Of a DNA stretch of 55,929 nucleotides, positions 3,295-54,566 are shown piece by piece. Source of the DNA: Minisyncoccota bacterium (GTDB lineage: Bacteria > Patescibacteriota > Minisyncoccia > Phycocordibacterales > UBA9973). The notes under the pieces were generated by a model. The model was not told the DNA's origin. It saw only the letters and a list, made by a program, of their open reading frames with translations, and did no database searches. A program made the position numbers and the translations under genes. The stretch is from the NCBI GenBank assembly GCA_018061035.1, contig JAGOUX010000004.1, forward strand, positions 1 through 55,929. Direction: 5' to 3'. Positions within the stretch are counted from its first letter, which is position 1. Each line of letters begins with the position of its first letter.

Positions 3295-3302
3295 TATCTC
3301 GA

Positions 3303-3336
3303 TTGACAATTAATTGGAAAGTAGTAAGAATATATA
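3303..3336 (+). promoter_or_regulatory. cassette promoter A1
   Basis: TTGACA (3303-3308), 17 nt, AAGAAT. Shares the AAAGTAGTA spacer motif with promoter A2. Confidence 0.5.
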
Positions 3337-3378
3337 GGTTACATGTTCTTAGCAATTTAGCGAAATAGAGGAGGACAC

Positions 3379-3819
3379 ATGAACAATAAGATCGAAGGCG
3401 AGGATTTGTTTGGCGGTTTGGATCTTGCGCGCGCCGTGTACCCGAGCATGCAGTCCGCACGGACGGGCCTGACACTCGACAACCTGGAGAAGTGGCAACA
3501 CGACCTCCAGAAACAGGAGGGACTCGACGGCCATCTCCTGCTCGAAGCGTTCGATCGCAAGCGCGGCATCGAGAGCTCAGCGAGCTTCGCCGATGTGGAG
3601 GTGTTGTGCGCACGGCACAGCGTCGATGGATTGTTTGCGCGTCTGCGTATTGGCCCCGGGGACATCCTCGGTCTCCCTAAATCAGCGTTCGTGACCGATG
3701 ACGGCATCAAGATGCCGGCACTCGCTCGTCTCGAAGCGGGCGTTGTTCCCATCATCATCCCGCTCGACGCCAAGACCAAACTCGGCGCCAACGTGTCGTT
3801 CCTCCGCCTCAACAGCTAG
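3379..3819 (+). CDS. hypothetical protein, G+C-rich cassette ORF A1
   Basis: GAGGAGG lies 4 nt before the ATG. A TTGACA-type promoter is upstream and the 85-bp hairpin/terminator module is downstream. No family recognised. Confidence 0.6.
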   Translation: MNNKIEGEDLFGGLDLARAVYPSMQSARTGLTLDNLEKWQHDLQKQEGLDGHLLLEAFDRKRGIESSASFADVEVLCARHSVDGLFARLRIGPGDILGLPKSAFVTDDGIKMPALARLEAGVVPIIIPLDAKTKLGANVSFLRLNS

Positions 3820-3828
3820 CCGACGCCT

Positions 3829-3913
3829 CGCCAACCACTTGCATGTGGATGGCGCAGAAATAGCGTCATTCATATGCAAGTGGACCAAGATTTATTCTTG
3901 TCCACTTGTTTTT
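3829..3913 (+). repeat. 85-bp module, copy 1 (long imperfect hairpin plus terminator hairpin)
   Basis: By reading, identical to 4556..4640. Stem CCACTTGCAT/ATGCAAGTGG, then AAGTGGAC..GTCCACTT followed by a T-run. Confidence 0.9.
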
Positions 3914-3917
3914 TTTA

Positions 3918-3946
3918 TTGACAAAAATATTTAAAGTAGTATTAAT
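3918..3946 (+). promoter_or_regulatory. cassette promoter A2
   Basis: TTGACA (3918-3923), 17 nt, ATTAAT (3941-3946). Confidence 0.55.
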
Positions 3947-3974
3947 AATGTAATATTTGCCCTTTACATAAAGC

Positions 3975-4026
3975 GAGGGTCACAGCTAAAAGATTCTAGA
4001 TCCGGAGTTTTTTAGCTATGACCCTC
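3975..4026 (+). other. 17-bp-stem hairpin in the 5' UTR of cassette ORF A2
   Basis: GAGGGTCACAGCTAAAA pairs with TTTTAGCTATGACCCTC with one mismatch. The loop contains TCTAGA. Confidence 0.7.
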
Positions 4027-4057
4027 ATGTCGACGGTCTAGCCTTGTTGGAGGCACT

Positions 4058-4549
4058 ATGCGGAATATGGAAAAGTTGTTTTCCGTACGCGAAGTCGCTT
4101 TCCCCGCTTGGGCAGCGGGGCGCCAGTTGTTCGAGGTTGGCCCGTCCCGTCGAGGCATTTCCTTTTCGGAGGTCGCCAAGATCGAGTGGGTGCCGGTGGA
4201 AGATGATATCTTCCCTGGAGAAGTCGTCGTCGAATTCGTTCAAGGCCGGGATCCCAACAAATTCCTCGGCCTGGCGGAGATGTGCGCCATGAAGTCGCAC
4301 TGGTTGGCGCTGTGGTCGGCGCTCAATCTCGAAGATCACGATGTGCTCGCTTTCCCGCGTGACATCGTGAAAGACAAAGACTGCTTCCTCGTCACCCCGG
4401 CGCTTGTCCGTCGGATGGTGCCGACGAGTGAGAAAGACTCGAATAGCGCGACGATCTGTGTGCCGCAGGTCCAGCGGTTCTGGACGCGGTTGAACGGAAA
4501 CAATAAGTTTAACAAGCGGCTCAAGATCGCCATGTTCAAGACACGCTGA
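4058..4549 (+). CDS. hypothetical protein, G+C-rich cassette ORF A2
   Basis: GGAGG lies 4 nt before the ATG. The promoter resembles that of A1, and an identical 85-bp module follows the stop. No family recognised. Confidence 0.6.
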   Translation: MRNMEKLFSVREVAFPAWAAGRQLFEVGPSRRGISFSEVAKIEWVPVEDDIFPGEVVVEFVQGRDPNKFLGLAEMCAMKSHWLALWSALNLEDHDVLAFPRDIVKDKDCFLVTPALVRRMVPTSEKDSNSATICVPQVQRFWTRLNGNNKFNKRLKIAMFKTR

Positions 4550-4555
4550 AGCGTG

Positions 4556-4640
4556 CGCCAACCACTTGCATGTGGATGGCGCAGAAATAGCGTCATTCAT
4601 ATGCAAGTGGACCAAGATTTATTCTTGTCCACTTGTTTTT
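4556..4640 (+). repeat. 85-bp module, copy 2
   Basis: Same 85 nt as 3829..3913, located directly after the stop of ORF A2. Confidence 0.9.
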
Positions 4641-4683: not shown

Positions 4684-6450
4684 ATGCAGTCAAATGAGAT
4701 AAGAAATAGATTTTTAAAGTTTTTTGAGAAGCGGGGACATAAAATAATTCCTTCTGCTTCGCTAGTGCCTGAGAATGATCCCTCAGTACTATTTAATACC
4801 GCAGGTATGCAGCCACTTGTGCCATATTTGCTCGGACAGGATCATCCTATGGGAAAGAGAATAGCCGATGTTCAAAAATGCGTACGTACTGGAGACCTAG
4901 AAGATATAGGTGATAATAGACATTTTTCATTCTTCGAAATGATGGGTAACTGGTCTTTCGGAGATTATTTCAAGGAGGACGCTATTAAGTGGAGCTATGA
5001 ATTTTTAACTAATGGTGATGATAAGCTAGAAGGAGATAAAGGTTTAGGGTTAGATATAAATCGCTTATACGTGACAGTTTTCGAAGGGGATGAAAACGCT
5101 CCGAGGGATACAGAGTCTGCAGAAATTTGGAAATCTTTGGGTGTACCAGAGAATAGAATATATTTCTTGGGCGCAGAAGATAATTGGTGGGCGGCGGGAG
5201 ACAATGGTCCATGTGGTCCTGACACTGAAATGTTTTACGACATGTCTGGTGCTGTAGGTGATCTATCCAAGGAGGAATTCCTTCAGGCAGTAAAAAATGA
5301 AGATGTGATTGAAATTTGGAACGATGTGTTTATGGAATATGAGAAGAAGGATGGAAAAGTAATTGGTAAATTAAAACAAAAGAATGTGGATACCGGTGCT
5401 GGATTAGAGCGCATTACTGCTGTAATGCAGGGCAAGAAAACGGCATATGAGACTGATTTGTTTTCGTCCGTTCTGGATTTAATCAAAAATGTTGCAGGAG
5501 ATAAATACAATGACAAGGCGGCCAGAATTATTTCTGACCATATTCGTGCATCTACATTTTTAATTGCTGATGGAGTAATACCATCTAATAAGGATCAAGG
5601 TTACGTATTACGTCGATTGCTTAGACGTGCTGTGCGTTATGCCGATCTTTTGAGTATTAATCCTGTGCATTTAAGCGAAATCATTTTTGCATTTATTGAT
5701 ACATATAAGCAAAATTACCCTGCATTGTTCGAAAAGGGAGAGTTCATAAAGGAAACAATTTTGGAGGAAGAAAATAAATTCAGAAAAACACTCGAGCATG
5801 GACTGAAAGAATTCGAAAAGGGGGTAGACCCGTTTATTTTGGCTACTACATACGGTTTCCCGATTGAGCTCACATTGGAATTAGCTAAAGAAAAAGGCCA
5901 GACTATAAATCTTGATGAATTTAATACCAAGATGGCCGAGCACCAAAAGCTTTCTCAGACAGCATCCGCAGGTATGTTCAAGGGCGGGCTTGCTAATCAC
6001 AATGAGAAAACTATCCGGCTTCATACCGCACACCATCTATTGCTCGCTGGGCTACAAACTCTAGTAGATAAGAGCATTAAACAGCGAGGAAGCAATATCA
6101 CCGAAGAGAGATTGCGCATAGACTTCATGTGTGACCACAAACTTACTGATGAAGAGAAGAAAAAGGTTGAGGATTGGGTGAATGAAAAGATCCAGGCAGG
6201 ATTAAATGTAATTCGAAGGGAGATGCCATTGTCTGAGGCAGAAAAGATAGGCGCAGAAATGGAATTTGGCGCGAAGTATCCCGAAGTTGTGTCTGTATAC
6301 TTCATCGAAGATGAGAATGGCACACCGATATCCAAAGAATTCTGTGGTGGTCCTCATGTAAACAACACAAAAGAACTCGGAATATTCAAGATTCAAAAAG
6401 AAGAAGCAGTTTCGGCAGGTGTGCGCAGAATAAAAGCAGTGCTTTCTTAG
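4684..6450 (+). CDS. alaS: alanine--tRNA ligase, compact form (588 aa)
   Basis: N-terminus RFLKFFEKRGH..PSASLVP..DPSVLFNTAGM. Editing-domain motifs HTAHHLL and CGGPHV are present. No C-Ala region follows. Confidence 0.9.
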   Translation: MQSNEIRNRFLKFFEKRGHKIIPSASLVPENDPSVLFNTAGMQPLVPYLLGQDHPMGKRIADVQKCVRTGDLEDIGDNRHFSFFEMMGNWSFGDYFKEDAIKWSYEFLTNGDDKLEGDKGLGLDINRLYVTVFEGDENAPRDTESAEIWKSLGVPENRIYFLGAEDNWWAAGDNGPCGPDTEMFYDMSGAVGDLSKEEFLQAVKNEDVIEIWNDVFMEYEKKDGKVIGKLKQKNVDTGAGLERITAVMQGKKTAYETDLFSSVLDLIKNVAGDKYNDKAARIISDHIRASTFLIADGVIPSNKDQGYVLRRLLRRAVRYADLLSINPVHLSEIIFAFIDTYKQNYPALFEKGEFIKETILEEENKFRKTLEHGLKEFEKGVDPFILATTYGFPIELTLELAKEKGQTINLDEFNTKMAEHQKLSQTASAGMFKGGLANHNEKTIRLHTAHHLLLAGLQTLVDKSIKQRGSNITEERLRIDFMCDHKLTDEEKKKVEDWVNEKIQAGLNVIRREMPLSEAEKIGAEMEFGAKYPEVVSVYFIEDENGTPISKEFCGGPHVNNTKELGIFKIQKEEAVSAGVRRIKAVLS

Positions 6451-12035: not shown

Positions 12036-12110
12036 TGTTATACTTGTCCCGTTAGAAATCCAACATACGGGGCAATAAGATGAAATTTATTAATTAAAAT
12101 TTTTAATGGG

Positions 12111-12464: not shown

Positions 12465-12581
12465 ATATAATTAGTACCTGTCCCGTAATAAATTTTAATT
12501 ACGATACACTGATACATTAGACAAAAACAGGAGAATAGTATAGATTAACAATAATAGAAAAAATAAAATTTTATTACCGGG

Positions 12582-13412: not shown

Positions 13413-13497
13413 TTTTGCATTCCTAATATTGACTTTATTACTAATTATGTTATGATTATAACAGATTTTTTCCGCGCTAATTGCGCAAGGAGACTAC

Positions 13498-13932
13498 ATG
13501 TTCGAATTGTACGTTGCAATACTGGGTAGCAGCACGATCTTGGCTGTCGTCATGGCCCTCGTGGTGATCTACCTCGAAATAACCAAGGGTCTGAGCGGCC
13601 TTGCCGTCGCAGTCAACAAGCTTGTGGGGAGCAAGAACCTCATCATGCTTGAGCTGTATGGCTACGCGACGTTATTCTCGTGGATCGCCTTGGCCATTCC
13701 GTGGATTGACCTCTTTACGATTTCGAAGTGGGCGCATTTCGAGAACCACAACCTGCGAACCTACTTCGGGCTGATCTCGAACAACGACGCGAACTTCTAT
13801 CTTTTCGCTGTGTTCTTCGGAGTTCTTGGCTCCAAGGCGGCGTTGGCGTTCATTGATCTGGCAAAGCTTCTGCGCAAGGGTCGGGTCAAGTGCACACCAC
13901 ATGGTCCGTTCGTGTCGTGGAGCCCAGAATAA
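13498..13932 (+). CDS. hypothetical membrane protein, G+C-rich cassette ORF B
   Basis: AAGGAG lies 5 nt before the ATG. The protein has about four hydrophobic segments. An AT-rich promoter region lies upstream and a hairpin plus T-run downstream. Confidence 0.55.
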   Translation: MFELYVAILGSSTILAVVMALVVIYLEITKGLSGLAVAVNKLVGSKNLIMLELYGYATLFSWIALAIPWIDLFTISKWAHFENHNLRTYFGLISNNDANFYLFAVFFGVLGSKAALAFIDLAKLLRKGRVKCTPHGPFVSWSPE

Positions 13933-14019
13933 ATTCTGCACACATGGCGGGTGAGACAAAAGTAAGTTGTTTCGCCCACCAGTAATAAAACGCCGCTCGG
14001 CGTATCTCCGAGCAATAGA

Positions 14020-14058
14020 AAGCCAGGACACCGAAAGGAAATATGTCACTGGCTTTTT
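14020..14058 (+). terminator. terminator of cassette B, related to the module-family terminator
   Basis: GAAAGCCAGGACACCGAAAGGAAATATGTCACTGGCTTTTT resembles GAAAGCCAGCAACACTCGAAAGGAGGAAATGTTGCTGGCTTTTT at 49961-50005. Confidence 0.7.
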
Positions 14059-14111
14059 AAATTTCTAATATTTTTTGGACCTGTCCGCCTCTAGCGGGAG
14101 GGGTCTTTTTA

Positions 14112-27019: not shown

Positions 27020-27496
27020 TTAAATTTCCTTAAGTAAATCCTCAAGATCAAGAGGCTCTGTGACCATTTCTACTAGGCCATCGTTTGAGACTTTCCATGT
27101 TGACCTTGGGCGGTCGACGTAGAGCTCTACGCCTATGCCGTCTGGATCGTTTAGATAAATTGCTTCGGATACTCCGTGGTCGGCTGTTCCGGTGATCGGA
27201 TAGTTTGCTTCCATGAGGCGCTTTAGTATGAGCGCGAGTTCGCGGCGGGTTGGGAAGAGGATTGCGTGGTGGTAGATGCCGGTGTGGCCAGCTGGTGGCG
27301 GCGTTGCGCCTTTGCCTGCCCAAGTGTTGAGCCCGATGTGGTGATGATAGCCTCCGGCAGAGAGGAAGACGGCGGATGCGCCGTAGCGGGCGGTGACTTC
27401 AAATCCGAGAATGTCGCGGTAAAAAGCGAGCGAGCGATCAAGATCGCCGACTGTCAGGTGCACATGTCCTATCTGTACGTCTTTATGTATTGGCAT
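27020..27496 (-). CDS. VOC family protein (glyoxalase/extradiol dioxygenase fold), G+C-rich
   Basis: IGHVHLTVGDLDRSLAFYRDILGFEV...HHIGLNTW. ATG 27496 lies 2 nt after the stop of the upstream gene. Confidence 0.8.
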   Translation of the reverse strand: MPIHKDVQIGHVHLTVGDLDRSLAFYRDILGFEVTARYGASAVFLSAGGYHHHIGLNTWAGKGATPPPAGHTGIYHHAILFPTRRELALILKRLMEANYPITGTADHGVSEAIYLNDPDGIGVELYVDRPRSTWKVSNDGLVEMVTEPLDLEDLLKEI

Positions 27497-27498
27497 AT

Positions 27499-27738
27499 TT
27501 ATATTTTCTTTAGGAATTCGGTTCTGAGAACTAGACCTTTCATGCCTTCTGCATTGCATTCTACCAATTCCTCGTCACCTGTGAGGCGGATGTTTTTGAT
27601 TTTAGTTCCTTGTTTTAGGGTGCTAGAAGTCCCTTTGACTTTAAGATCTTTGATGATGATGACGCTGTCACCACTAGCGAGTATATTGCCATGTGCATCC
27701 TTGGTTATCACTTCTTCTTCCGTATCTTCATTTTCCAT
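27499..27738 (-). CDS. PhnA/YjdM C-terminal-domain protein
   Basis: GDSVIIIKDLKVKGTSSTLKQGTKIKNIRL...LRTEFLKKI matches the YjdM C-terminal domain. The N-terminal Zn ribbon is absent. Confidence 0.8.
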   Translation of the reverse strand: MENEDTEEEVITKDAHGNILASGDSVIIIKDLKVKGTSSTLKQGTKIKNIRLTGDEELVECNAEGMKGLVLRTEFLKKI

Positions 27739-28741: not shown

Positions 28742-28851
28742 CGCGCTAAAGTAATTTATGAAATAACAAAACCCCGTCGCTTAGGGCTTCGGGGTTCATG
28801 CTTGTTGATTGTGGCGAACGGAGCGCGGGTGCTCCGTTCGCTTTTGGTGGC

Positions 28852-29136
28852 TTACTTCATGAAGAAGATGATTGACTTGAGTGCGGCGATGTCAATCTCC
28901 AGCTTGGTCTCCTTGGAAAAGGTTGAGACTCCGAGATGGGGGCAGGGATCCACCTTGCCTTCACACTCGGGACAGTCGCCCGCTGTCTTGAATATTTCGA
29001 TCTTTGCCAGCTCGATCTCATCACAGTTCTCAACGAGTTCGAGGAGCTTTTCCCACACAGCGCTTATGTCAGCAGAAGTGTGGACCGTTTTCTTGGTCGT
29101 GACGACTACCTCAAACCTTGCAACGCTTCCTGCCAT
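28852..29136 (-). CDS. hypothetical small protein, G+C-enriched cassette ORF D1
   Basis: GGAGGAGG lies 5 nt before the ATG on the minus strand. Contains CPECEGKVDPCPH. Two hairpins and a T-run lie downstream. Confidence 0.5.
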   Translation of the reverse strand: MAGSVARFEVVVTTKKTVHTSADISAVWEKLLELVENCDEIELAKIEIFKTAGDCPECEGKVDPCPHLGVSTFSKETKLEIDIAALKSIIFFMK

Positions 29137-29221
29137 GGCTTCCTCCTCCCAGGATGTCTGGGGTACATAGTCACATACAAATTACCACGTTTTGTGGAAA
29201 AGTAAATACCTATAGTGGCTC

Positions 29222-29249
29222 TTGCAGTTAATTTAAAATATTGTATAAC
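29222..29249 (+). promoter_or_regulatory. cassette promoter for the DUF397 ORF
   Basis: TTGCAG, 16 nt, TG-TATAAC. Confidence 0.45.
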
Positions 29250-29309
29250 TTAAGTGTAAGCTCATCCGCTCGGGTAGCCAACCCCGGGAGAAAGGAGACC
29301 AAAAAGTAG

Positions 29310-29543
29310 ATGGCAAACGGCGCGCGTAAACCCTTTACGTTCCCTGTCACTGACGGGGACTTCGTAAAGTCGAGTTACAGCAACCCGGGCGGCCTGATCT
29401 CGACGTGTGTCGAGGTCGCGGTCAAACCTGAAGGCGTCGCGGTGCGTGACAGCAAGGCAACCAACGGTCCTGTGCTGTACTTCACCCACGACGAGTTCGT
29501 GGCGTTCAAGAAGGGCGTCGCGGCCGGCGAGTTCGGCGGCTGA
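29310..29543 (+). CDS. DUF397 domain protein, G+C-rich cassette ORF D2
   Basis: VKSSYSNPGGLISTCVEVAV..GVAVRDSKATNGPVLYFTHDEFVAFKKGVAAGEF matches the DUF397 pattern (SSYS..G.CVEVA...V.VRDSK...GP.L.F....W..F). Confidence 0.75.
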   Translation: MANGARKPFTFPVTDGDFVKSSYSNPGGLISTCVEVAVKPEGVAVRDSKATNGPVLYFTHDEFVAFKKGVAAGEFGG

Positions 29544-29614
29544 TAGCCATCCGAACTGATCCCTCCCGTCAACACGGGCGCATGTTCAAGCGATATTGAA
29601 TGATTTTTCCCTTA

Positions 29615-29650
29615 ACGGGCCGACTAGCAACATGCTGGTCGGCCCGTTTT
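29615..29650 (+). terminator. terminator after the DUF397 ORF
   Basis: ACGGGCCGAC..GTCGGCCCGT plus TTTT. Confidence 0.8.
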
Positions 29651-29660
29651 ACATTTAATT

Positions 29661-30144: not shown

Positions 30145-30172
30145 TTGATTTTTATCTATAAAACTGCATAAT
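30145..30172 (+). promoter_or_regulatory. cassette promoter for ORF E
   Basis: TTGATT, 16 nt, TG-CATAAT. Confidence 0.45.
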
Positions 30173-30189
30173 ACGAAACGGAGGCTCCT

Positions 30190-30585
30190 ATGAACCAACG
30201 CGACAAGCATCTTGCGGACTGTATTCGCAAGGGCTTTGCCCACAACGATGTATATACGAAAAACGGGCGCTGGTCCATCACCAATGGACACGTCTGGGAA
30301 AGCACTTCTGCTGCCGGCCTTGCCTTGGTCGACTTGCTCGGAGTCGAGGCTGCTGTCCGGCTTCTGTGGTCGGTATCCCTCGAAAAGGACAAGCCCAAGG
30401 GGAAGACGGAAGAGGCGAGTCAGTTGCTCGGGCTCACCGTCTCGGAGTATTTGGCTCTCGAAGAGCACTCAGAAGTGCTCTCGCCGGCCCAGATCGCCGA
30501 CTTGCTCGAATCGGGCTGGTTCCCGTTTGAGCCGGACGCCATCGAGTACGTCGCAGGTTTGAGATACGACGATTGGTCGTTCTGA
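30190..30585 (+). CDS. hypothetical protein, G+C-rich cassette ORF E
   Basis: ACGGAGG lies 5 nt before the ATG. Promoter is TTGATT-N16-CATAAT, and a strong terminator sits at 30603..30638. Confidence 0.55.
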   Translation: MNQRDKHLADCIRKGFAHNDVYTKNGRWSITNGHVWESTSAAGLALVDLLGVEAAVRLLWSVSLEKDKPKGKTEEASQLLGLTVSEYLALEEHSEVLSPAQIADLLESGWFPFEPDAIEYVAGLRYDDWSF

Positions 30586-30602
30586 TCTTGCAATCATTCA
30601 TC

Positions 30603-30638
30603 AACAGGCCGGCGAGCAAATGCTCTCCGGCCTGTTTT
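30603..30638 (+). terminator. terminator after cassette ORF E
   Basis: AACAGGCCGG..CCGGCCTGTT plus TT. Confidence 0.8.
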
Positions 30639-30645
30639 AAATTTA

Positions 30646-46324: not shown

Positions 46325-47338
46325 ATGGAAAATAAAGAGAAAATAGTGCTTACAGGCGACCGTCCGACAGGAAGACTTCATTTGGGACATTACGTAGGCT
46401 CAATAAAAAATCGTGTAGCTTTACAGAATGAAGCAAGTAAGGCTTACTATATGGTGGCTGATATTCAAGCGCTCACAGATAATGCTGATAATCCAGAAAA
46501 AGTTCGCAGTAATGTGATGGAGGTAGTGCTCGACAATTTGGCTTGTGGAGTAGATCCAAAGAAAACCACTTTTTTCATACAATCGATGATTCCAGAGATT
46601 GCAGAGCTTACCGTATTATTTATGAATTTGGTCACAGTCCAACAGCTATCTCACAATCCTACTATCAAAACAGAGCTCAAAGAAAAAGGTTTGGCCGAGG
46701 GTACTCCGCTCGGATTTATGGCATACCCAGTGTCTCAGGCGGCAGATATACTTTTTTGCAAAGCTAATACTGTGCCTGTCGGGGTTGATCAGATGCCTGT
46801 ACTTGAGCAAGCGAATGATATTGTCAAAAAATTCAATGCGATATATGGAGTCGATTTATTTCCCAAGATTACCGGAGTGACGAGCTCTATCCCACGACTT
46901 GTAGGGATTGATGGCAATGCAAAAATGTCCAAATCTCTCGGTAATTGCATATTCCTTTCAGATTCCGACAAAGAAATAGAGGAAAAAGTCATGCAAGCTT
47001 TTACTGATCCTGATCATGTGCGGGTAGAAGACAAAGGTAAGGTAGAAGGCAATGTTGTTTTCACATACCTCGATGCATTCGATGAGGATAAAGCCGGCGT
47101 AGCAGAATTGAAAGAAAAATATCAACAAGGGGGATTAGGAGATGTGGTGCTTAAGAAAAGACTTACGAAAGTACTTGTAGATATCATCTCTCCAATACGA
47201 GCAAAACGTGAGGAATATGCCAAAGATCCTCAATATGTAATGAGCATTCTAGAAAAAGGAATTGCTGTTGCTCGTGAGGACGCAAAAAAAACCATGGAAG
47301 AAGTTCGCAAAGCTATCAAAATAGACTATTTTAGCTAA
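46325..47338 (+). CDS. trpS: tryptophan--tRNA ligase
   Basis: TGDRPTGRLHLGHYVG (HIGH) and KMSKS. Confidence 0.95.
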   Translation: MENKEKIVLTGDRPTGRLHLGHYVGSIKNRVALQNEASKAYYMVADIQALTDNADNPEKVRSNVMEVVLDNLACGVDPKKTTFFIQSMIPEIAELTVLFMNLVTVQQLSHNPTIKTELKEKGLAEGTPLGFMAYPVSQAADILFCKANTVPVGVDQMPVLEQANDIVKKFNAIYGVDLFPKITGVTSSIPRLVGIDGNAKMSKSLGNCIFLSDSDKEIEEKVMQAFTDPDHVRVEDKGKVEGNVVFTYLDAFDEDKAGVAELKEKYQQGGLGDVVLKKRLTKVLVDIISPIRAKREEYAKDPQYVMSILEKGIAVAREDAKKTMEEVRKAIKIDYFS

Positions 47339-47622
47339 TGAAAAATAATATCGAACAGTACAAACAAGAAGCAGTGGAAGTAATCCACAAAATTGGTAAG
47401 GATAAGAACCTGCTCGCACTTTTCTTGCGAGATATCCTAACCCCACGCGAATTCGAAAATATCGGCGTGCGCTGGCAGATAGTGAAGCGCTTGGCGAAAG
47501 GGGAGCATCATGCTGCCATAGCTGAGAGTCTTCATCTAGGTGTGGCGACTGTCACTAGGGGGTCCCGAGAAATGCGCAAAAAAGATGGCGGACTCCAAAA
47601 AGCATTGAAGGCTTTGAAATAA
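47338..47622 (+). CDS. TrpR-family (YerC/YecD-like) DNA-binding protein
   Basis: LTPREFENIGVRWQIVKRL...IAESLHLGVATVTRGSREM. The ATG overlaps the trpS stop (TAATG). Confidence 0.8.
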   Translation: MKNNIEQYKQEAVEVIHKIGKDKNLLALFLRDILTPREFENIGVRWQIVKRLAKGEHHAAIAESLHLGVATVTRGSREMRKKDGGLQKALKALK

Positions 47623-47868
47623 AAGCTAATTTTTACTTTATATATTGGTAATTTGAGTTTTCCACAGTAAGGCAATTTATTTACTTGCTTTATTTTTTTA
47701 TATATACTAGCATACTAGTATGATGATATTAAGAAATTTACAAATAAACACAAAGTATTGGCGCAGTTTTAGCAGCCAAGCTTTTGCGTCGATTTGTTAG
47801 TTTCTTTCTCTAGATAAGGAATTCACACACCGGCGTAAAAAGCGTCGTTTGTTCTTTATGGAGGCAGT

Positions 47869-48078
47869 ATGCCGTTGGATAAGCAAGTGTCTACTGAAGC
47901 AGTATCGCAGGTAAGTGGTTCTTACGAAACGGTTGGTGTGGGTGCCCATACTTTCATTCGCACGAGCCGTGAAGATAGTTCTGTTCTCGAGTGTCTGACT
48001 TGCGAGAAAAAAGGCACTGTAGAGCAGCTCGAAATCGAGCCATGTGAGTCGAAAGGTTCTCGGCGCGCTGGCTGGTAA
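47869..48078 (+). CDS. hypothetical small protein, cassette region F ORF1
   Basis: GGAGG lies 4 nt before the ATG. G+C-enriched. Contains CLTCEKK. Confidence 0.45.
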   Translation: MPLDKQVSTEAVSQVSGSYETVGVGAHTFIRTSREDSSVLECLTCEKKGTVEQLEIEPCESKGSRRAGW

Positions 48079-48107
48079 CAACTTCATCTTGAAAGGAGGT
48101 GATAATC

Positions 48108-48218
48108 ATGGTTCGTAACTGGATTGCTGCGGATGGGGACGGAAGTTCAACTCTAGCGCCTTGGCCTTACAAACATCGGCCAGGCAAGGTTCTCAAGTCG
48201 AAGGAGCCCAAGAAGTAA
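48108..48218 (+). CDS. hypothetical 36-aa peptide, cassette region F ORF2
   Basis: Hand translation gives MVRNWIAADGDGSSTLAPWPYKHRPGKVLKSKEPKK. AAAGGAGGTG lies 7 nt before the ATG, and a GC-rich hairpin follows at 48245..48272. Confidence 0.4.
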   Translation: MVRNWIAADGDGSSTLAPWPYKHRPGKVLKSKEPKK

Positions 48219-48244
48219 TACGGGCTTTATGCAAATCGTTTGGG

Positions 48245-48272
48245 GCGTCGCGTGTGGGATATCACGCGGCGC
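48245..48272 (+). terminator. GC-rich hairpin after region-F ORF2
   Basis: GCGTCGCGTG-loop-CACGCGGCGC. The T-run is weak. Confidence 0.5.
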
Positions 48273-48291
48273 TTCCCAAATTTCTTTACAC

Positions 48292-48319
48292 TTGCATTAT
48301 TTTATATTTACGCTATATT
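48292..48319 (+). promoter_or_regulatory. promoter upstream of leader copy L1
   Basis: TTGCAT (48292-97), 16 nt, TATATT (48314-19). Confidence 0.45.
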
Positions 48320-48394
48320 AAAAATGTGAACAGATTACAAGCAAACATTATCGTCGTCGACCTGAAGGGCTTCTTTTTTAAGAAGTACTCTTTC

Positions 48395-48510
48395 ATTTAG
48401 AAGACTGATGCTTGCGCTGTAACAACTCTCAAACAAACTACAACCCAAACACCAGCCTTCTAAAGTAAGACTGGTTTTTACTTTATCGGGTGTGGGTGTT
48501 CTTTCATCAA
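48395..48510 (+). ncRNA. structured 5' leader, copy L1 (candidate attenuator/riboswitch-like element)
   Basis: About 115 nt alignable to 49004..49125. Terminator hairpin CCAGCCTTC..GACTGG plus T-run (48452-48479). Upstream TTAGAAGACTG can pair with CAGCCTTCTAA. Confidence 0.55.
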
Positions 48511-48523
48511 CGGAGGCAAGCAT

Positions 48524-48844
48524 ATGCGAGGAAATACGGGCAAGGATCACGGTTCCAGCAATCCCGGATTTTTTGGTGGCTCTGATCATGGAGACACCGA
48601 GGGTTATGCCGAGATTGCTCGGCGAATCCGCGAAGCGGGGTCTGCGCAACCAGTGCAGACATCGGTCGAGAGCCCCAGGCTCGCGATGGTTCATGATCCC
48701 TTCGAGCTGCCGGAGACGGGGTCGCATCAGGCGTATACCAATCCGTGCTCGGAAAATTACGTTGCCACGGCCGCCAAGCCGCCACAGCGTGTCGTCGAGC
48801 GAGTGCCCTTTCGTATGAGTTCCAATCTCTCACGCAGAGACTAG
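48524..48844 (+). CDS. hypothetical protein, cassette region F ORF3
   Basis: ACGGAGG lies 7 nt before ATG 48524, so this frame is preferred over the overlapping 48492..48818 and antisense frames. A 13-bp-stem hairpin follows the stop. Confidence 0.5.
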   Translation: MRGNTGKDHGSSNPGFFGGSDHGDTEGYAEIARRIREAGSAQPVQTSVESPRLAMVHDPFELPETGSHQAYTNPCSENYVATAAKPPQRVVERVPFRMSSNLSRRD

Positions 48845-48857
48845 GGCTCAATCGGTC

Positions 48858-48889
48858 AGCGCCGCGTGTCCATCATGACACGCGGCGCT
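48858..48889 (+). terminator. GC-rich hairpin after region-F ORF3, sequence-related to 48245..48272
   Basis: AGCGCCGCGTGTC-loop-GACACGCGGCGCT (13-bp stem). Confidence 0.55.
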
Positions 48890-49003
48890 ACCAAAACTTA
48901 ATTTCGAAATAATTAATACATTACAAATAATTTATATATGTCATTATATGAAAGTGAATAAAAACCGACAGGAAATTAATAATGTTTTCTTTTTCAGCCC
49001 TCA

Positions 49004-49125
49004 ATTTAGAAGGCTGATCTTTGTGCTGTAAAAATAAACTCTCAAAAACGAACTACAACCCAAACACCAGCCCTCTAAAGGGGCTTTTCCTTTTTTAGGC
49101 GGTGTGGGGTTCTTTTTGTTCGTCG
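49004..49125 (+). ncRNA. structured 5' leader, copy L2
   Basis: Shares ATTTAGAAGnCTGAT...CTCAAA..ACTACAACCCAAACACCAGCC with L1. Terminator AGCCCTCTAAAGGGGCT plus T-run (49069-49096). Confidence 0.55.
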
Positions 49126-49152
49126 AAAACCAAATAGAGAGGATGTGAGGAA

Positions 49153-49521
49153 ATGAGACTTCCAGTGTTTCAAAAGTTGTTCTTTGTCGTGGATCATTCC
49201 GGAAGCTGTGGTGGAACTAGTGATGGCGGACGCAATCCAAGAAAAAGAAACAAGAAAGAGGTTGCTGAGAGAAATGCCGAAAAAGCAGCCGACGCCTTTT
49301 TCAATGCTCAGAATGACGTCGTTCGCGTGCAGAAAGAATTGGAAAACGCGAACGAGCACTACTGGAACACATTTTGGAGCATGAAGAAGTTTTGGGGAGG
49401 TAATCTCGTTGAGGCGGCTATGATGGTCGATGAGATGGAGAATAATTTGGTCACTGCTAGGGAGGTTTTGGCATCAGCCAGAGTCGCCGCTATCGCCGCC
49501 GCCAAAGTCGCGAAGGTGTGA
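49153..49521 (+). CDS. hypothetical coiled-coil-like protein, cassette region F ORF4
   Basis: Preceded by the second copy of the structured leader. TGAGGAA lies directly before the ATG. The C-terminal half is Ala/Glu-rich. Confidence 0.5.
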   Translation: MRLPVFQKLFFVVDHSGSCGGTSDGGRNPRKRNKKEVAERNAEKAADAFFNAQNDVVRVQKELENANEHYWNTFWSMKKFWGGNLVEAAMMVDEMENNLVTAREVLASARVAAIAAAKVAKV

Positions 49522-49664
49522 AAGATTCCATTGATTAGGTTTTGAGCTAAGAGATTGGTGGGATTGAGAGTTTGTGAAAACTCTACAAAAATTCACAGGT
49601 GATGGGGTCTACCTATCAAGTGGCTCTTAATGAAGTTCTTTGGAGGACGAAAGGAGGTGATGAA

Positions 49665-49928
49665 ATGATTCCTCAGAGTAGCTACTGGTTTGGTCCTGAC
49701 GACGAGCCACAAGGTGAACCACAACCCAAAAGTGACGCTCCGAAACTCGAGAATTTCTTCGATTTTCTCGACGAAGTTCTGCGGGGGCTGGTGCGGATGC
49801 CTGAAGGGGTGTTGGTGCACAACTCACACGAGTACTCACTGGAGCGACGACGGTGCAATACCTGCGATGCCGACGGCGAAAACCTCCAACAGCATTGCGT
49901 CGGCATTTGGCCGACCTTCGGCAACTAA
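49665..49928 (+). CDS. hypothetical small protein, cassette region F ORF5
   Basis: AAAGGAGGTG lies 6 nt before ATG 49665, the same SD context as ORF2. Followed by the 3' module 49936..50005. Confidence 0.5.
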   Translation: MIPQSSYWFGPDDEPQGEPQPKSDAPKLENFFDFLDEVLRGLVRMPEGVLVHNSHEYSLERRRCNTCDADGENLQQHCVGIWPTFGN

Positions 49929-49935
49929 TAGCAAC

Positions 49936-50005
49936 AGGTGTAGATCCTGATCACTCTACAGAAAGCCAGCAACACTCGAAAGGAGGAAATGTTGCTGGCT
50001 TTTTA
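49936..50005 (+). repeat. 3' module family, copy F (small hairpin plus terminator)
   Basis: AGGTGTAGATCCTGATCACTCTACAGAAAGCCAGCAACACTC...TGTTGCTGGCTTTTT. Confidence 0.8.
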
Positions 50006-50025
50006 TATTGTGTTAATATGTATTT

Positions 50026-50252
50026 AGAGCCGTTGAGCCAGCTGACACTGGGGAGGTAAAGGAAGACCCTTCGACTTTGCTCAGGGCAAGATCGAAGATG
50101 TAGAACCTTTCGGGTAAGCCCGTTAAAGCTGTAATGAAGTATCCTCCTTCGCTAAAGCTATGGAGGACAAGAAGTAGGGTGGCACCGCGAAATATCGCCC
50201 CTGCAAATTTATCAGATTAAAAGATAAGTTTGGAGAGGCGATTTTTTGTTTT
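50026..50252 (+). promoter_or_regulatory. T-box leader upstream of aspS
   Basis: AAGTAGGGTGGCACCGCG (50172-50189) matches the T-box consensus AANNNGGGTGGNACCGCG. AGAG..GTTGA near the 5' end is GA-motif-like. A terminator helix ATCGCC(50194-99)/GGCGAT(50237-42) is followed by a T-run. A GAC (Asp) candidate specifier lies at 50065-50067. Confidence 0.8.
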
Positions 50253-50266: not shown

Positions 50267-51652
50267 ATGAAAAACAGAATATATATAAAAGATCTTAAGG
50301 GAAGTATTGGGCAAGAAGTAATTATTGCCGGATGGGTGGATGTGCGTCGAGACCAAGGCAAAATGGTCTTCTTTGATATGCGAGATATGACTGGCAAGGT
50401 GCAATGCGTGACCCTACCAATTCATCCCGAAGCAATAGCTAGTGCAAAGGAAATCAGGCCAGAGTGGGTGCTGATCGTAAAAGGCATAGTGAAGGCTCGC
50501 ACTGATAAAAACGCAGAAGCTGGTGGTGGTGTCGAGATTGAGGTTACAGGTATAGAAGTACTAAATAAAGCAGAGACCACTCCTTTTCAGATCACCGAAT
50601 CTACATCAGGCATCAACGAGGATTTGAGAATGAAATATAAGTATCTTGATCTCCGCACAGAGCGAATGCAGAAGAATATTCGTATGCGAGACAAGATTAT
50701 CACCTTTTTCCGCAAATACATGCACGACAATGATTTTATCGAAATTGAAACACCAATATTAATGAAGGGAACTCCGGAAGGTTCTCGTGAGTATGTAGTA
50801 CCTTCTCGAATTTTCAACGGACAGTTTTATGTGTTGCCTCAATCTCCTCAGCAGTTCAAACAGCTTTCTATGGTGGCTGGTTTTGAAAAGTATTTCCAAA
50901 TCGCTCGCTGTATGCGTGACGAAGACACACGAGGTGATAGACAGCCGGAATTCACCCAGCTCGACTTCGAGATGTCATTCGTAACTCAAGAAGAAGTTCT
51001 TGAATATACAGAAGCGATGTTCATTGAACTCGTAAAGACCGTGTACCCAGAGAAAAAGATAACTCAGATTCCTTTTCCAAGAATTTCATACGCTGAATCT
51101 ATGGAGAAGTATGGATCAGACAAGCCGGACATGCGAGTGAATAAGGAAGATCCGAATGAGCTTGCTTTTGCATGGGTTCTAGATTTCCCAATGTTTGAAA
51201 AGACAGATGATGGCGAGCTTCAGGCAGTGCATCATCCATTTTGCTCTATCAAAGAGGAGGACAAGGCCAAGTTTATGAGTGGGGAGGATATGTTTTCAAT
51301 TCGTGCCAATGCTTATGATCTAGTATTAAACGGCTACGAACTTTCTTCAGGATCTATTCGTATCCACGAGCGAGAAGTACAAAAGAGAGTATTCGAATTA
51401 TTGAAAATCAGCGAGGAAGTACAGCAGGCAAAATTTGGCCACATGCTCGAAGCATTTACTTTTGGCGCACCTCCACACGGAGGCTTCGCTCCCGGTATTG
51501 ATCGTATTGTTATGATCCTCCAAAACGAGCCAAACATTCGTGAAGTCATAGCCTTCCCAAAGACAGGTGAAGGTAGAGACCTTATGATGGGTGCTCCAGC
51601 TCCAATCACTGACAAACAGCTTAAAGAGCTCGGAATTAAACTCGGCAAATAA
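50267..51652 (+). CDS. aspS: aspartate--tRNA ligase, compact (461 aa)
   Basis: OB-fold N-terminus, QSPQQFKQL, class II motifs (FQIARCMRDED, GGFAPGIDR). Confidence 0.93.
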   Translation: MKNRIYIKDLKGSIGQEVIIAGWVDVRRDQGKMVFFDMRDMTGKVQCVTLPIHPEAIASAKEIRPEWVLIVKGIVKARTDKNAEAGGGVEIEVTGIEVLNKAETTPFQITESTSGINEDLRMKYKYLDLRTERMQKNIRMRDKIITFFRKYMHDNDFIEIETPILMKGTPEGSREYVVPSRIFNGQFYVLPQSPQQFKQLSMVAGFEKYFQIARCMRDEDTRGDRQPEFTQLDFEMSFVTQEEVLEYTEAMFIELVKTVYPEKKITQIPFPRISYAESMEKYGSDKPDMRVNKEDPNELAFAWVLDFPMFEKTDDGELQAVHHPFCSIKEEDKAKFMSGEDMFSIRANAYDLVLNGYELSSGSIRIHEREVQKRVFELLKISEEVQQAKFGHMLEAFTFGAPPHGGFAPGIDRIVMILQNEPNIREVIAFPKTGEGRDLMMGAPAPITDKQLKELGIKLGK

Positions 51653-52884: not shown

Positions 52885-52887
52885 ACG

Positions 52888-52957
52888 AAAAATACCAGCG
52901 AAAGGGACTCTGTGAGAGTGTTGCTGGTATTTTGGAGAGTGATTAGGATCTCCACCT
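52888..52957 (-). repeat. 3' module family, copy G1 (after the AstE-like gene)
   Basis: The minus strand reads AGGTGGAGATCCTAATCACTCTCCAAAATACCAGCAACACTC...CGCTGGTATTTTT. Confidence 0.8.
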
Positions 52958-52971
52958 AGTACTTTCGGCCG

Positions 52972-53802
52972 CTAGCAATAGCAACCGAAATAAAATGCTT
53001 CTTTCCCGACTCCATCACAGTCGTCTGCGAAGAGGATGAGCCCATCCTTCTTCGCGGTGACTTCAACATCGCCGTCGTGGCCGATGATTTCACCCTTGTT
53101 TACGGGCTCGAAATCTTTCCACTCCCGTGCGCGTTTGAACCCGCTCGCGGTTGTGTGGTAGATTTCTTCGATCTGAACTCGCTCCTTGGAGATGATATCC
53201 ATCTCATCTTCCACAAGAGTGATGTGTCCTCGAGCATGAAGGAAGCCGAAAATTGCAAGGGAGGCCTTTGACACTACGCTTGGGTCCTCGTGATGTCCGC
53301 ACTCGACACAGACACCGATTCTGCCTGCCCGATTCATGTACTCGTCGGTTCCACCAGGACAGACCTGGTCAAAACCCGAGACGATAATTTCGACAGGAAG
53401 TTTCTCGGCGATGAATATGCCGTTCTGTTCGCAGATTGCGAATGGCTTGCTTTCAGGCGTGTCGCTCGAGTGGATATCGAGTAGTGCACCGGCCTCGTCG
53501 AGATAAGACTTCAAGTACCCAGCGCGGTGGTACTCGTAGGTGTGTTTGTGCCACTCATAGTATGCGCTCGGCGCCATGAACGCGCGGTTCAGGTCGAATT
53601 CTGTAAAGCGCATGTTTTTGGCGACGGCGTTGGGGTTGCCCACGACGAGAAAAACCGTGCCCCATTCAATCTTGAGCCCATCTTGCACAAAGAGCTCCTC
53701 AAACGCTTGAAGCCCACAAGGTTCATTGCCGTGGACTCCAGCCAGGATTACGCTTGTTGGGCCCGGCATGGACCCTGTAATCCTTATGACTTCTTCTCTC
53801 AT
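52972..53802 (-). CDS. succinylglutamate desuccinylase/aspartoacylase (AstE/AspA, M14-like) family protein, G+C-rich
   Basis: ILAGVHGNEPCG, DLNRAF, LLDIHS, VECGHH motifs. Own promoter TTGTCT-N17-TATATT on the minus strand, with the 3' module downstream. Confidence 0.75.
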   Translation of the reverse strand: MREEVIRITGSMPGPTSVILAGVHGNEPCGLQAFEELFVQDGLKIEWGTVFLVVGNPNAVAKNMRFTEFDLNRAFMAPSAYYEWHKHTYEYHRAGYLKSYLDEAGALLDIHSSDTPESKPFAICEQNGIFIAEKLPVEIIVSGFDQVCPGGTDEYMNRAGRIGVCVECGHHEDPSVVSKASLAIFGFLHARGHITLVEDEMDIISKERVQIEEIYHTTASGFKRAREWKDFEPVNKGEIIGHDGDVEVTAKKDGLILFADDCDGVGKEAFYFGCYC

Positions 53803-53882
53803 CGGTCACTACCTTTCTCAAATAACAGAATATTAGCTTTAATATAGATTATTTAGTGCCTAAAGACAAGTTTATTTATAAG

Positions 53883-53891
53883 TGGTATAAT
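53883..53891 (+). promoter_or_regulatory. extended -10 box, leaderless-type (PCD)
   Basis: TGGTATAAT, 8 nt, ATG 53900. Confidence 0.5.
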
Positions 53892-53899
53892 ATAGAAAT

Positions 53900-54232
53900 A
53901 TGAATAATGATTTATTGCAGAAAAAATGTGTGCCGTGCGAAGGGGGAGTAGCCCCACTCGTGCAGATAGAGGCCGAGGCTTTTATGAAATGGGTAGATGG
54001 TTGGACGCTAAGTGTAGACAATAAAAAGATCAGCAAAGAGTATAAATTTAATGATTTTAAAGATGCGATGGTGTTTGTGAACAAAGTAGCCGATGTCGCC
54101 AATGCCGAAGACCACCATCCAGATATTTATATCTACTACAACAAAGTAAAACTCGAGCTCACCACACATGCGATAAATGGCCTGTCTCAAAATGACTTCA
54201 TCGTGGCTGCAAAGGTGGACGCTGTAAATTAA
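53900..54232 (+). CDS. 4a-hydroxytetrahydrobiopterin dehydratase (PCD/DCoH)
   Basis: CVPCEGG...W....FKDAMVFVNKVADVANAEDHHPDI...V.LELTTH. Confidence 0.85.
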   Translation: MNNDLLQKKCVPCEGGVAPLVQIEAEAFMKWVDGWTLSVDNKKISKEYKFNDFKDAMVFVNKVADVANAEDHHPDIYIYYNKVKLELTTHAINGLSQNDFIVAAKVDAVN

Positions 54233-54298
54233 AAAACCGGTCAACATATCTCCTTTGAGTGTTGCCGGTTTTCTGGAGAGCGATCAGGATCTCCACCT
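54233..54298 (-). repeat. 3' module family, copy G2 (after the 80-aa ORF; also terminates the PCD gene on the plus strand)
   Basis: The minus strand reads AGGTGGAGATCCTGATCGCTCTCCAGAAAACCGGCAACACTC...GACCGGTTTTTT. Confidence 0.8.
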
Positions 54299-54323
54299 GT
54301 TGCGTTACTTGTGCGCCTTTGCA

Positions 54324-54566
54324 CTAATGAATCGAGTCCGTTCTGTTAGAGATGTAATTTGGGTTTTTCTTTTTATATTCTTCCAAAAACTTCCACTCTT
54401 GCGCGATTCTCTTGTCTCGAGTAATCTTGGAAGTTTTGTTGCACCACTTACACCATGAGACTGGACCTTTTCTTTCGTTTTTCTTTGGATATATCCATTC
54501 GTGTGTCCCTCTGATGGACTTCAAGCATTTCCATCTCTCAACGATTTTCTCTTTATTGGCCATCAT
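54324..54566 (-). CDS. hypothetical Lys-rich small protein (weak call)
   Basis: An 80-aa ORF with WCKWC and no clear SD. Its stop is followed by the same 3' module as the AstE-like gene. Confidence 0.35.
   Translation of the reverse strand: MMANKEKIVERWKCLKSIRGTHEWIYPKKNERKGPVSWCKWCNKTSKITRDKRIAQEWKFLEEYKKKNPNYISNRTDSIH

Follow-up and report, generated by a model that had tools for sequence, protein, structure and literature searches.

Phage morons, as described by Hendrix and colleagues, are reportedly single extra genes that sit between other genes, carry their own promoter and factor-independent terminator, and deviate from their surroundings in base composition. The minimal mobile elements of Neisseria (Saunders and Snyder) are said to be variable cassettes between conserved flanks that hold no mobility genes and whose exchange is attributed to transformation and homologous recombination. 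Here we compare with these systems a set of units found in a 55,929-nucleotide stretch of DNA, called the window throughout (contig JAGOUX010000004.1 of GenBank assembly GCA_018061035.1). We read the window as part of the chromosome of a Nomurabacteria-like bacterium of the Paceibacteria, within the Patescibacteria or candidate phyla radiation (CPR); the closest relatives of its GrpE (14127-14705) come from metagenome-assembled genomes labelled Nomurabacteria, Paceibacterota or Patescibacteria, at 80 to 99% identity. CPR bacteria are mostly uncultured, and little is known about their hosts or the rules of their gene expression. We consider it reasonably probable that about a dozen open reading frames (ORFs, called here by their lower coordinate) in the window are horizontally acquired single-gene islets, drawn from a guanine-plus-cytosine (GC)-rich pool that uses Shine-Dalgarno (SD) sites and installed by transformation and recombination at hotspots.

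A first-pass annotation had judged by eye that these ORFs are far more GC rich than their A+T-rich surroundings, and the computed values bear this out. The window has a GC content of 41.4%, and 46 backbone genes have a GC content of 0.406±0.036 and a third-codon-position GC content (GC3) of 0.391±0.060, with a maximum of 0.57. For the 12 listed ORFs that were scored, GC was 0.49-0.62 (z 2.2-5.8) and GC3 was 0.46-0.78 (Mann-Whitney p=1.7e-7 compared to the backbone). Six ORFs are strongly GC rich, with GC3 of 0.65-0.78 [3379, 4058, 13498, 28852(-), 29310, and 30190]; the cluster at 47869-49928, the AstE-like ORF 52972(-), and the VOC gene 27020(-) are moderately so, with GC3 as low as 0.46 for ORF 47869. 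Read along the SD-bearing strand, GC content falls in the order GC3>GC1>GC2, and ORFs antisense to it mirror that order, which argues that the listed ORFs are real coding sequences. The untranslated regions (UTRs) of the units had a GC content of 0.38-0.57, compared to 0.31±0.07 in 27 backbone intergenic regions, so the whole transcribed unit deviates and not the codons alone. Together the units make up 12.9% of the window. ORF 23140-23670 (GC 0.47) was considered as a further islet and rejected, since this PaaX-like gene is conserved and belongs to the core shared by most relatives. A GC-rich stretch upstream of a class II aminoacyl-tRNA synthetase gene was also rejected as a cassette; a T-box leader (RF00230, 45 bits, E=8.5e-7, below the gathering score) accounts for its composition.

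The second contrast lies in the start sites. A GGAGG, AGGAG, or GAGG motif 2 to 12 nt before the ATG was found for 11 of the 13 listed ORFs but at only 3 of 54 backbone starts (Fisher p=2e-8), in keeping with the earlier remark that backbone genes lack SD sites. The claim that eleven ORFs have a GGAGG-type SD thus stood, but not its spacing of 4 to 8 nt, which is 12 nt for ORF 29310 and 2 nt for ORF 49153. In two islet ORFs the full AAAGGAGGTGAT context is present, fully complementary to the canonical anti-SD tail; ORF 52972 has a weak site and ORF 27020 none that is convincing. Many backbone starts lie 5 to 9 nt after the end of a TAnAAT box, much as first noted. The contrast holds across the lineage: among 1020 ORFs of at least 100 aa in ∼1.1 Mb of loci from 64 related species, an SD-like motif near any candidate start was seen in 95, close to the 7.3% scored by a single random 13-nt stretch and therefore at chance level, and a -10-like box abutted the start in 434 (43%). 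Many native genes thus appear to be leaderless, with the -10 box beside the ATG. An anti-SD motif has been found in only 48% of Parcubacteria 16S rRNAs (PMC9297842), and neither the window nor the loci retrieved from relatives contains a 16S rRNA gene whose 3′ end could be checked for one. The SD enrichment may be a signature of the donor, or it may reflect a filter: if native genes start translation at 5′ ends or on unstructured AT-rich leaders, GC-rich, leadered foreign mRNA might go untranslated in this host unless it has a strong SD, an idea that hinges on the host anti-SD. Native SD-less and imported SD-led genes would form an internal contrast within one genome, which bears on whether such ribosomes use an anti-SD and on which foreign genes are expressible after transfer.

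The units share one layout (Table 1): an AT-rich promoter-like site, a 5′ UTR of ∼10 to 150 nt, the SD, the ATG and ORF, and one to three stable hairpins with a T-run after the last. The 3′ hairpins of most units had fold z-scores of -4.5 to -8. The units lie 3′ of the genes for MgtC, S9, TfoX, a Trp_repressor-like protein, and EamA, just before the -10 box of the next backbone gene, so that the operon-boundary positions first reported (after mgtC, rpsI, tfoX, the TrpR-like gene, and eamA) were as claimed. The extent of ORF 48108 had to be corrected to only 36 aa, with its end at 48218. Gene 27020(-) has an internal ATG (M22) beside a TATAAAT box and may therefore be expressed in the host manner, leaderless; it may be an older or ameliorated import. 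The unit of ORF 54324(-), which is not GC rich overall, is a candidate older islet.

Presence and absence were compared at the operon boundaries. Islet C, between rpsI and grpE, is present in the window and on the independently assembled contigs L001 and L002 but absent from a sister species (GrpE 90% identical, 196-kb JGI contig), in which rpsI is followed by grpE after a gap of 174 bp; this is the presence/absence polymorphism that the first-pass annotation had proposed to look for. In 62 related species, rpsI and grpE are usually 40 to 260 bp apart, with no GC-rich insert between them, so a GC-rich gene occurs there only in the species of the window. In nine of the 62 relatives the gap contains inserts of 580 to 1780 bp, all AT rich and encoding unrelated proteins, from which we conclude that the rpsI-grpE site is an insertion hotspot. 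No homologue of any islet protein was found in the 1.1 Mb of loci from the 64 related species. The core genes next to the islets are mosaic. Between the window and contig L093, alaS is 63 to 86% identical over 4684-6200 and the flanks, including islets A and B, are 99 to 100% identical, which points to import from a distant lineage; the AlaRS of the window has 588 aa and that of L093 has 579. Compared to L001, the window diverges by ∼5% in grpE and ∼22% in the next gene, against a baseline of ∼0.7%. Such mosaics in alaS and grpE suggest that transformation and homologous recombination at hotspots would suffice as an explanation. The idea that islet C is younger than its flanks was rejected, as a mismatch map showed the flanks (grpE and the end of rpsI) to be locally hyperdivergent compared to the ∼0.7% baseline. 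Directly 3′ of grpE is a small ORF with a GIY-YIG domain, which conspecific strains have and which is missing from that position in the sister species; in the conspecific strain L086, a rhodanese gene has a 161-bp deletion (window 30716-30876).

Taken together, these data suggest a route by which the islets could have arisen. They would be drawn from a GC-rich, SD-using gene pool as self-contained units, each with a sigma-70-like AT-rich promoter, a 5′ UTR of raised GC, an SD, one ORF of 36 to 276 aa that is in most cases an orphan, and an intrinsic terminator, and would be installed at permissive intergenic hotspots between operons. Natural transformation would bring them in, and recombination, either homologous or homology-facilitated, would install and exchange them, with no site-specific recombinase; the conserved noncoding end modules described below could serve as extra homology anchors. 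A strong SD may be the entry ticket for structured, leadered GC-rich foreign mRNA. That the host is competent is suggested by the TfoX gene in the window together with general knowledge of CPR bacteria.

The nature of the pool is best seen with ORF 29310. Its assignment to DUF397 (PF04149, a family that we take to be BldB-like) was borne out by Pfam, with 57.5 bits against a gathering cutoff of 24 and E=1.6e-15. The nearest relatives of the protein are P0133 (67% identity) and P0134 (59%), followed by a Streptomyces protein (48%). P0133 and P0134 are encoded on the short, AT-rich contigs L084 and L085, whose other genes have a GC content of 41 to 51% and no SD motifs. The DUF397 genes on these contigs form single-gene units and have a GC content of 0.59-0.63, a GC3 of 0.81, and their own TTGAC-type promoter-like site, SD, and terminator, and their neighbors differ (NUDIX in L084, GrpB in L085). 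The same architecture is found in another Nomurabacteria genome (L004 19991-20254, GC 0.58), with AGGAG before the ATG and an own terminator. Within the DUF397 trio, 43 to 65% of 4-fold degenerate sites at identical amino acids differ, which is at or near saturation for this composition, and yet GC3 stays at 0.78-0.81; most of the divergence therefore arose under a GC-favoring regime. The simplest reading is that the three genes would be separate imports from diverged GC-rich donors, the alternative being selection for GC within CPR genomes. Families that stay GC rich across saturated divergence suggest repeated import from a GC-rich reservoir and could be used to seek the partner. DUF397 is a typical actinomycete family; plasmid records with a DUF397 match in tblastn were from Actinomycetes in 30 of 30 cases, at 39 to 55% identity.

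The first-pass annotation had proposed capture from a high-GC partner or host. The foreign origin of the units is supported by their composition, including the UTRs, and by SD sites, orphan proteins, and presence/absence; the capture itself is possible, with no donor found. A more far-reaching version, which we hold to be unlikely, is that SD-less, AT-rich Patescibacteria draw on a distinct GC-rich, SD-dependent pool of adapter-bounded modules whose genes stay GC rich through continual re-import from a GC-rich partner or host, or else that the SD sites form a second translation channel. DUF397 would then point to an Actinomycetota-like partner. If re-import is correct, the islets are a genomic record of the host of Nomurabacteria; if the second channel is correct, the SD sites define a separately controlled translation in an otherwise SD-less lineage.

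Noncoding modules common to different ORFs had also been reported, and the three examined here, an 85-nt 3′ module, a second 3′ module, and a 5′ leader, are all real. The 85-nt module runs from just past the stop codon to the end of the T-run, starts with CGCCAAC, ends with GTTTTT, and forms two separate hairpins, the second of which is the terminator; its copies in islets A and B are 100% identical. When the DNA of the two islets is aligned, the promoter region is alignable, the ORF has diverged beyond recognition, and the 85-nt module is again identical. An exact-pattern scan of species-representative genomes, a collection that seemingly does not include the species of the window, gave no match. 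The second 3′ module follows ORFs 49665, 52972(-), and 54324(-) and comprises a small hairpin, whose loop is conserved, and then a terminator; the small stem shows a compensatory change (TGTAGA/TCTACA compared to TGGAGA/TCTCCA). It also occurs in a different species from aquifer metagenomes (L083 and L094), behind another GC-rich ORF and again near a Pterin_4a gene. A metagenome scan for this module recovered one contig only, L083, and outside the species of the window the only module copies found lie on short contigs of a single other organism that overlap one another (L083, L094, and others). A covariance model recovered these four copies only, with a weak match at the terminator of islet C (E=0.14) and none in the 64 relatives. 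By eye, the shared modules showed no MITE- or REP-like terminal inverted repeats or target-site duplications, and the 56 kb contains 2 to 3 copies of them. The 5′ leader module precedes ORFs 48524 and 49153, and strain L088 is 99.4% identical to the window up to the ATG at 49153, after which a different ORF (MSKKNSELAKL...) follows behind the same leader. Similar GC-rich hairpins behind ORFs 48108 and 48524 may be a third shared 3′ element.

A dedicated cassette-exchange system could explain these modules. They would be recombination or uptake sites, comparable to the attC sites of integrons or to uptake-sequence terminators, and a recombinase elsewhere in the genome would act on them to take in and shuffle promoter-ORF-terminator cassettes. 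An identical 85-nt module behind two highly divergent ORFs, a second module with a compensatory hairpin change behind four different ORFs in two species, one 5′ leader ahead of three different ORFs with a strain swap that begins exactly at the ATG, and a mgtC-alaS site occupied by a single divergent family member in the sister species but by two in the window would all fit such a system. Against it, Pfam found no integrase, transposase, or serine/tyrosine recombinase in the 39 backbone ORFs scanned, every large one of the 56 kb among them, in agreement with the first-pass annotation; only RecR, the GIY-YIG-domain ORF, and two TraG/VirD4-like ATPases came up. By inspection and folding, the modules have neither attC core sites nor a single long imperfect hairpin. 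Each cassette brings a promoter-like site of its own, and the cassettes lie apart rather than in an array. The modules are low in copy number, no copies were found in species-representative genomes or the 64 relatives, and they are plausible as terminators and leaders in their own right. We therefore judge a dedicated system to be distinctly unlikely. Of the modular dissemination mechanism once suggested, the modules around different ORFs, the L088 swap, and the cross-species copy stand, but no recombinase, attC-like site, or terminal-repeat/target-duplication signature was seen with them. The modularity is real, and no new machinery is needed on present evidence; adapters and hotspot swaps suggest a simple recombination-based cassette exchange in very small genomes.

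We also weighed the reading that the ORFs are native, lineage-specific genes, GC rich and SD led by selection, which would form a separate SD-dependent regulon of fast-evolving small proteins. ORFs 3379 and 4058 had been regarded as unrelated. Precisely between mgtC and alaS, the site of these two ORFs in the window, the sister species has a single ORF, P0136. The P0136 protein shares 34% identity with that of ORF 3379 and 39 to 42% with that of ORF 4058, and the latter two are 20% identical to each other. Because both match P0136, we take ORFs 3379 and 4058 to be remote tandem paralogues. P0136 has a GC-type amino acid composition (G+A+R+P = 0.33, compared to 0.21±0.04 in the backbone). Backbone proteins of the window and the sister species are ∼90% identical, judged from GrpE, and the 3379/4058/P0136 family reflects either extremely fast evolution or a swap of different alleles at one site. 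A family that holds the same locus in two species at 34 to 42% identity is what native genes might show, as is the GC3 of ∼0.8 that the DUF397 trio retains after synonymous saturation. ORF 30190 is kept in strain L086 with 9 mismatches, 3 of them amino acid changes, a pattern that resembles purifying selection. However, the ORFs are absent from the loci of the 64 related species, and ORF 13498 from the sister species. In addition, the UTRs are raised in GC as well, the graded GC3 of 0.46-0.78 looks like amelioration, and we know of no selective reason for such a composition. Native origin thus seems to us improbable.

That a GC-rich phage or plasmid, for instance an actinophage-like one, left single genes in the chromosome as remnants or morons has a similarly small chance of being correct. 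An own promoter and terminator together with a deviating composition is moron architecture, the ORFs are small orphans, the DUF397 protein matches phrog_10815 (E=5e-14), and the two AAAGGAGGTGAT contexts suit a canonical anti-SD. Searches of phage data point the other way: IMG/VR held no relatives of ORFs 3379, 30190, and 29310, ORF 30190 had no match in 50,697 phage genomes, the orphan ORFs matched nothing in PHROGs, PADLOC, or NCBIfam, and no phage structural, integration, or replication genes lie nearby, the flanks being housekeeping genes. The orphans are isolated more generally. When large protein collections are clustered, the islet proteins stand alone or with one other member, and Pfam families were assigned to three islet ORFs only: DUF397 (29310), AstE/AspA (52972), and Glyoxalase (27020). 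A word-indexed protein search returned no homologue of ORF 3379, and an exhaustive HMMER search with ORF 4058 returned P0136 only. The predicted structure of the 3379 protein had a mean confidence (pLDDT) of 32 alone and 54 with a three-sequence alignment; Foldseek found no PDB structure with E below 0.5, nor did a profile search match any PDB sequence.

The GC junctions were checked against contigs assembled independently from other samples, in which eight of the ORFs recur together with both of their junctions, in some cases as sequence variants; ORFs 49153, 49665, 52972(-), and 27020(-) were seen on none of these contigs. Islet C is on L001 (JGI 3300043411, 97.6% identical to the window) and L002 (SRR35185575, 93.9%), islet F on L086 (SRR12762291, ∼98%), 46457-49153 with cluster G up to 49153 on L088 and L089 (JGI 3300043411 and SRR35185575, 99.4-99.8%), islets A and B on L093 (JGI 3300043411, 99.4-100% in a contig that is 88% identical overall), and islets D to F on L091 and L092 (SRR11088468 and SRR11088367, 100%). 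One short public contig, L090 (GCA_020047435.1 JAHZTN010171427.1), joins sequence 100% identical to the window to HemY-like DNA of 63% GC at window position 48166; it was rejected as a variant junction, being probably an assembly chimera that leaves the window unaffected. Although L090 shows that such artifacts exist in this type of data, the reading that GC-rich fragments of other organisms were joined into an AT-rich contig by chimeric assembly or contamination can practically be dismissed, since both junctions of eight ORFs recur in the assemblies from JGI 3300043411, SRR35185575, SRR12762291, and SRR11088468/367 and a promoter-like site, SD, and terminator delimit every unit precisely.

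Several points nevertheless weigh against horizontally acquired islets exchanged by transformation and recombination. The islets keep their position among conspecific strains, and no mobility was seen directly. No donor was found, and orphans without a match among billions of proteins are odd for well-sampled GC-rich bacteria. An identical 85-nt module behind paralogues that are 20% identical needs gene conversion or a module-specific process, and a second 3′ module on at least four different ORFs in two species, with none in 64 relatives, hints at something beyond generic recombination. A generic promoter scan showed no enrichment over shuffles in AT-rich DNA; of the claim that the units have their own promoter and terminator, the terminators stand by their hairpins with T-runs, and the promoters are plausible by position only. 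Finally, some Parcubacteria lack an anti-SD (PMC9297842), and if the same is true here, the SD-filter idea fails.

The backbone around the islets encodes ribosomal proteins (S13, S11, S4, L17, L13, S9, and L21) and RpoA, four aminoacyl-tRNA synthetases (AlaRS, CysRS, a class I W/Y synthetase, and a class II D/K/N synthetase), and GrpE, DnaK, DnaJ, DnaB, RecR, MetK, MgtC, TfoX, and two TraG/VirD4-like ATPases. The last are paralogues (TrwB_AAD_bind, T4SS-DNA_transf) that share a 242-nt repeat, 71% identical, and may be DNA-transfer machinery in an import-rich genome. An operon of four large Cys-rich paralogues (556-610 aa) with internal repeats is hypervariable among strains (the one paralogue scanned gave no match in Pfam): divergence is ∼22% from position 15000 on, and similarity to L001 and L002 stops at 15314. 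The sister species has five such genes. The Rfam search gave no match in the window at gathering thresholds; at relaxed thresholds the T-box was the only credible match, and the leaders and 3′ modules matched no family. A tRNA scan found no tRNA genes in the window.

Several backbone genes share a long-range leader stem whose 5′ arm begins just past the -10 box with (T)CCCGT and whose 3′ arm ends in ...(A/C)(C/T)GGG abutting the ATG. The middle of the stem covaries across genes and species (TACTA/TAGTA, TTATAA/TTATAA, and TTAGAA/TTCTAA), and at least 9 of 10 positions are paired at 16 of 32 GGG-preceded starts, compared to 50 of 358 control starts. The stem also occurs on L003, L004, L010, L022, L025, L030, and L045; in a lineage without SD sites, it may serve in processing or initiation. 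In addition, divergent promoter regions share the palindromic motif ACTTTAGT...ACTAAAGT, one copy of which adjoins a Trp_repressor-like gene; the motif is found in another species too and looks like an operator.

Table 1. Coordinates and signals of the islets and of other features (window positions unless a contig is named).
Feature	Span	Strand	ORF or product	GC; GC3	5′ signals	3′ signals or remarks
Islet A	3303..3913	+	3379-3819, 146 aa	0.60; 0.76	TTGACA-17-AAGAAT 3303-3331; SD GGAGG 3370-3374	85-nt module 3829-3913: two hairpins and T-run, fold z=-8.0
Islet B	3918..4640	+	4058-4549, 163 aa	0.57; 0.74	TTGACA 3918-3923, TATTAA ∼3940-3945; structured 5′ UTR of ∼110 nt; SD GGAGG 4049-4053	85-nt module 4556-4640
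Islet C (rpsI-grpE)	13429..14062	+	13498-13932, putative membrane protein (judged by eye), 144 aa	GC3 0.73	TTGACT 13429-13434, TATGAT 13452-13457; SD AAGGAG 13487-13492	three hairpins, T-run after the last
VOC/Glyoxalase gene	27020..27559	-	27020-27559	0.51; 0.52	no convincing SD	
Islet D	28760..29175	-	28852-29136, 94 aa	GC3 0.65	SD GGAGGAGG 5 nt before ATG	terminator hairpin 28791-28767 and T-run
Islet E	29223..29652	+	29310-29543, DUF397, 77 aa	0.62; 0.78	promoter-like TTGCAG...TGTATAAC; GC-rich 5′ UTR; AGGAG 12 nt before ATG	16-bp terminator 29614-29648
Islet F	30145..30640	+	30190-30585, orphan, 131 aa	GC3 0.72	promoter-like TTGATT-16-CATAAT 30145-30172; SD GGAGG 30180-30184	terminator 30603-30636
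Cluster G (3′ of Trp_repressor-like gene)	47680..50008	+	47869-48078 (69 aa), 48108-48218 (36 aa), 48524-48844 (106 aa), 49153-49521 (122 aa), 49665-49928 (87 aa)		SD before all five ORFs	
Islet H	52885..53870	-	52972-53802, AstE/AspA family (M14-like deacylase), 276 aa	0.53; 0.62	weak SD	shared 3′ module 52885-52964
Orphan ORF unit	54227..54566	-	54324-54566, 80 aa	0.39; 0.52		3′ module 54227-54305
Second 3′ module	49929-50008(+), 52885-52964(-), 54227-54305(-)					
5′ leader module	48395-48465, 49004-49080					
Similar GC-rich hairpins	48244-48275, 48858-48893					GCGTCGCGTG...CACGCGGCGC and GCGCCGCGTGTC...GACACGCGGCGC
T-box leader	50024-50205	+	upstream of class II synthetase gene 50267-51652			
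TraG/VirD4-like ATPases	32809-35034, 35835-37286					
GIY-YIG-domain ORF	14719-14979		86 aa			
Cys-rich operon	14907-21922					
Leader stems	12048-12110, 12481-12581, ∼32690-32808, 39978-40043(-), 44684-44750(-), 23688-23740(-); L004 19860-19915					
Palindromic motif	27785-27815, 54990-55070; L083 244-281; L094 1773-1810					

No paper describing such a pattern turned up in the literature. What a specialist would not expect is the clean SD/no-SD split, GC richness maintained through saturated divergence, and conserved adapters around orphan ORFs in a very small genome. Up to 13% of the length of Patescibacteria genomes has been attributed to horizontal gene transfer (PMC12455944), and there, as here with 12.9% of the window, atypical GC marks recent imports; in the parts of that report that we draw on, the transferred DNA comprises islands of 2.7 to 45 kb and individual genes, and SD-bearing single-gene units or shared noncoding modules are not described. 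Classical genomic islands, with an insertion beside a tRNA gene, an integrase, and direct repeats at the flanks, differ: the window has no tRNA genes, no integrase came up in the ORFs scanned, and no direct repeats particular to the units were found around them. The gene cassettes of integrons, including the Vibrio superintegron with its VCR repeats, resemble the units in their small orphan ORFs, a structured repeat of ∼80 to 125 nt at the 3′ end, and variable site content. However, the units have no IntI, attI, attC cores (checked by inspection), or single imperfect hairpin, have promoter-like sites of their own, and occupy at least seven separate intergenic sites rather than an array, so that they differ from integron cassettes in every feature tested.

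The closest analogues appear to be phage morons and the minimal mobile elements of Neisseria. Like morons, the units look like autonomous promoter-ORF-terminator units of foreign composition, with promoters here assigned by consensus and position only. Unlike morons, they lie between housekeeping operons (mgtC/alaS, rpsI/grpE, tfoX, trpS plus the TrpR-like gene, and eamA), with no prophage and no structural match in PHROGs, and they also differ from the host in the mode of initiation, with SD sites in a background that has none. The likeness to minimal mobile elements lies in content that varies between the same flanks at rpsI-grpE, at mgtC-alaS, and at 49153 in L088, and in units of one or few small ORFs without recombinase domains. 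Compared to those elements, the contrast in composition and SD sites is far stronger here, and noncoding modules also bound the variable ORFs.

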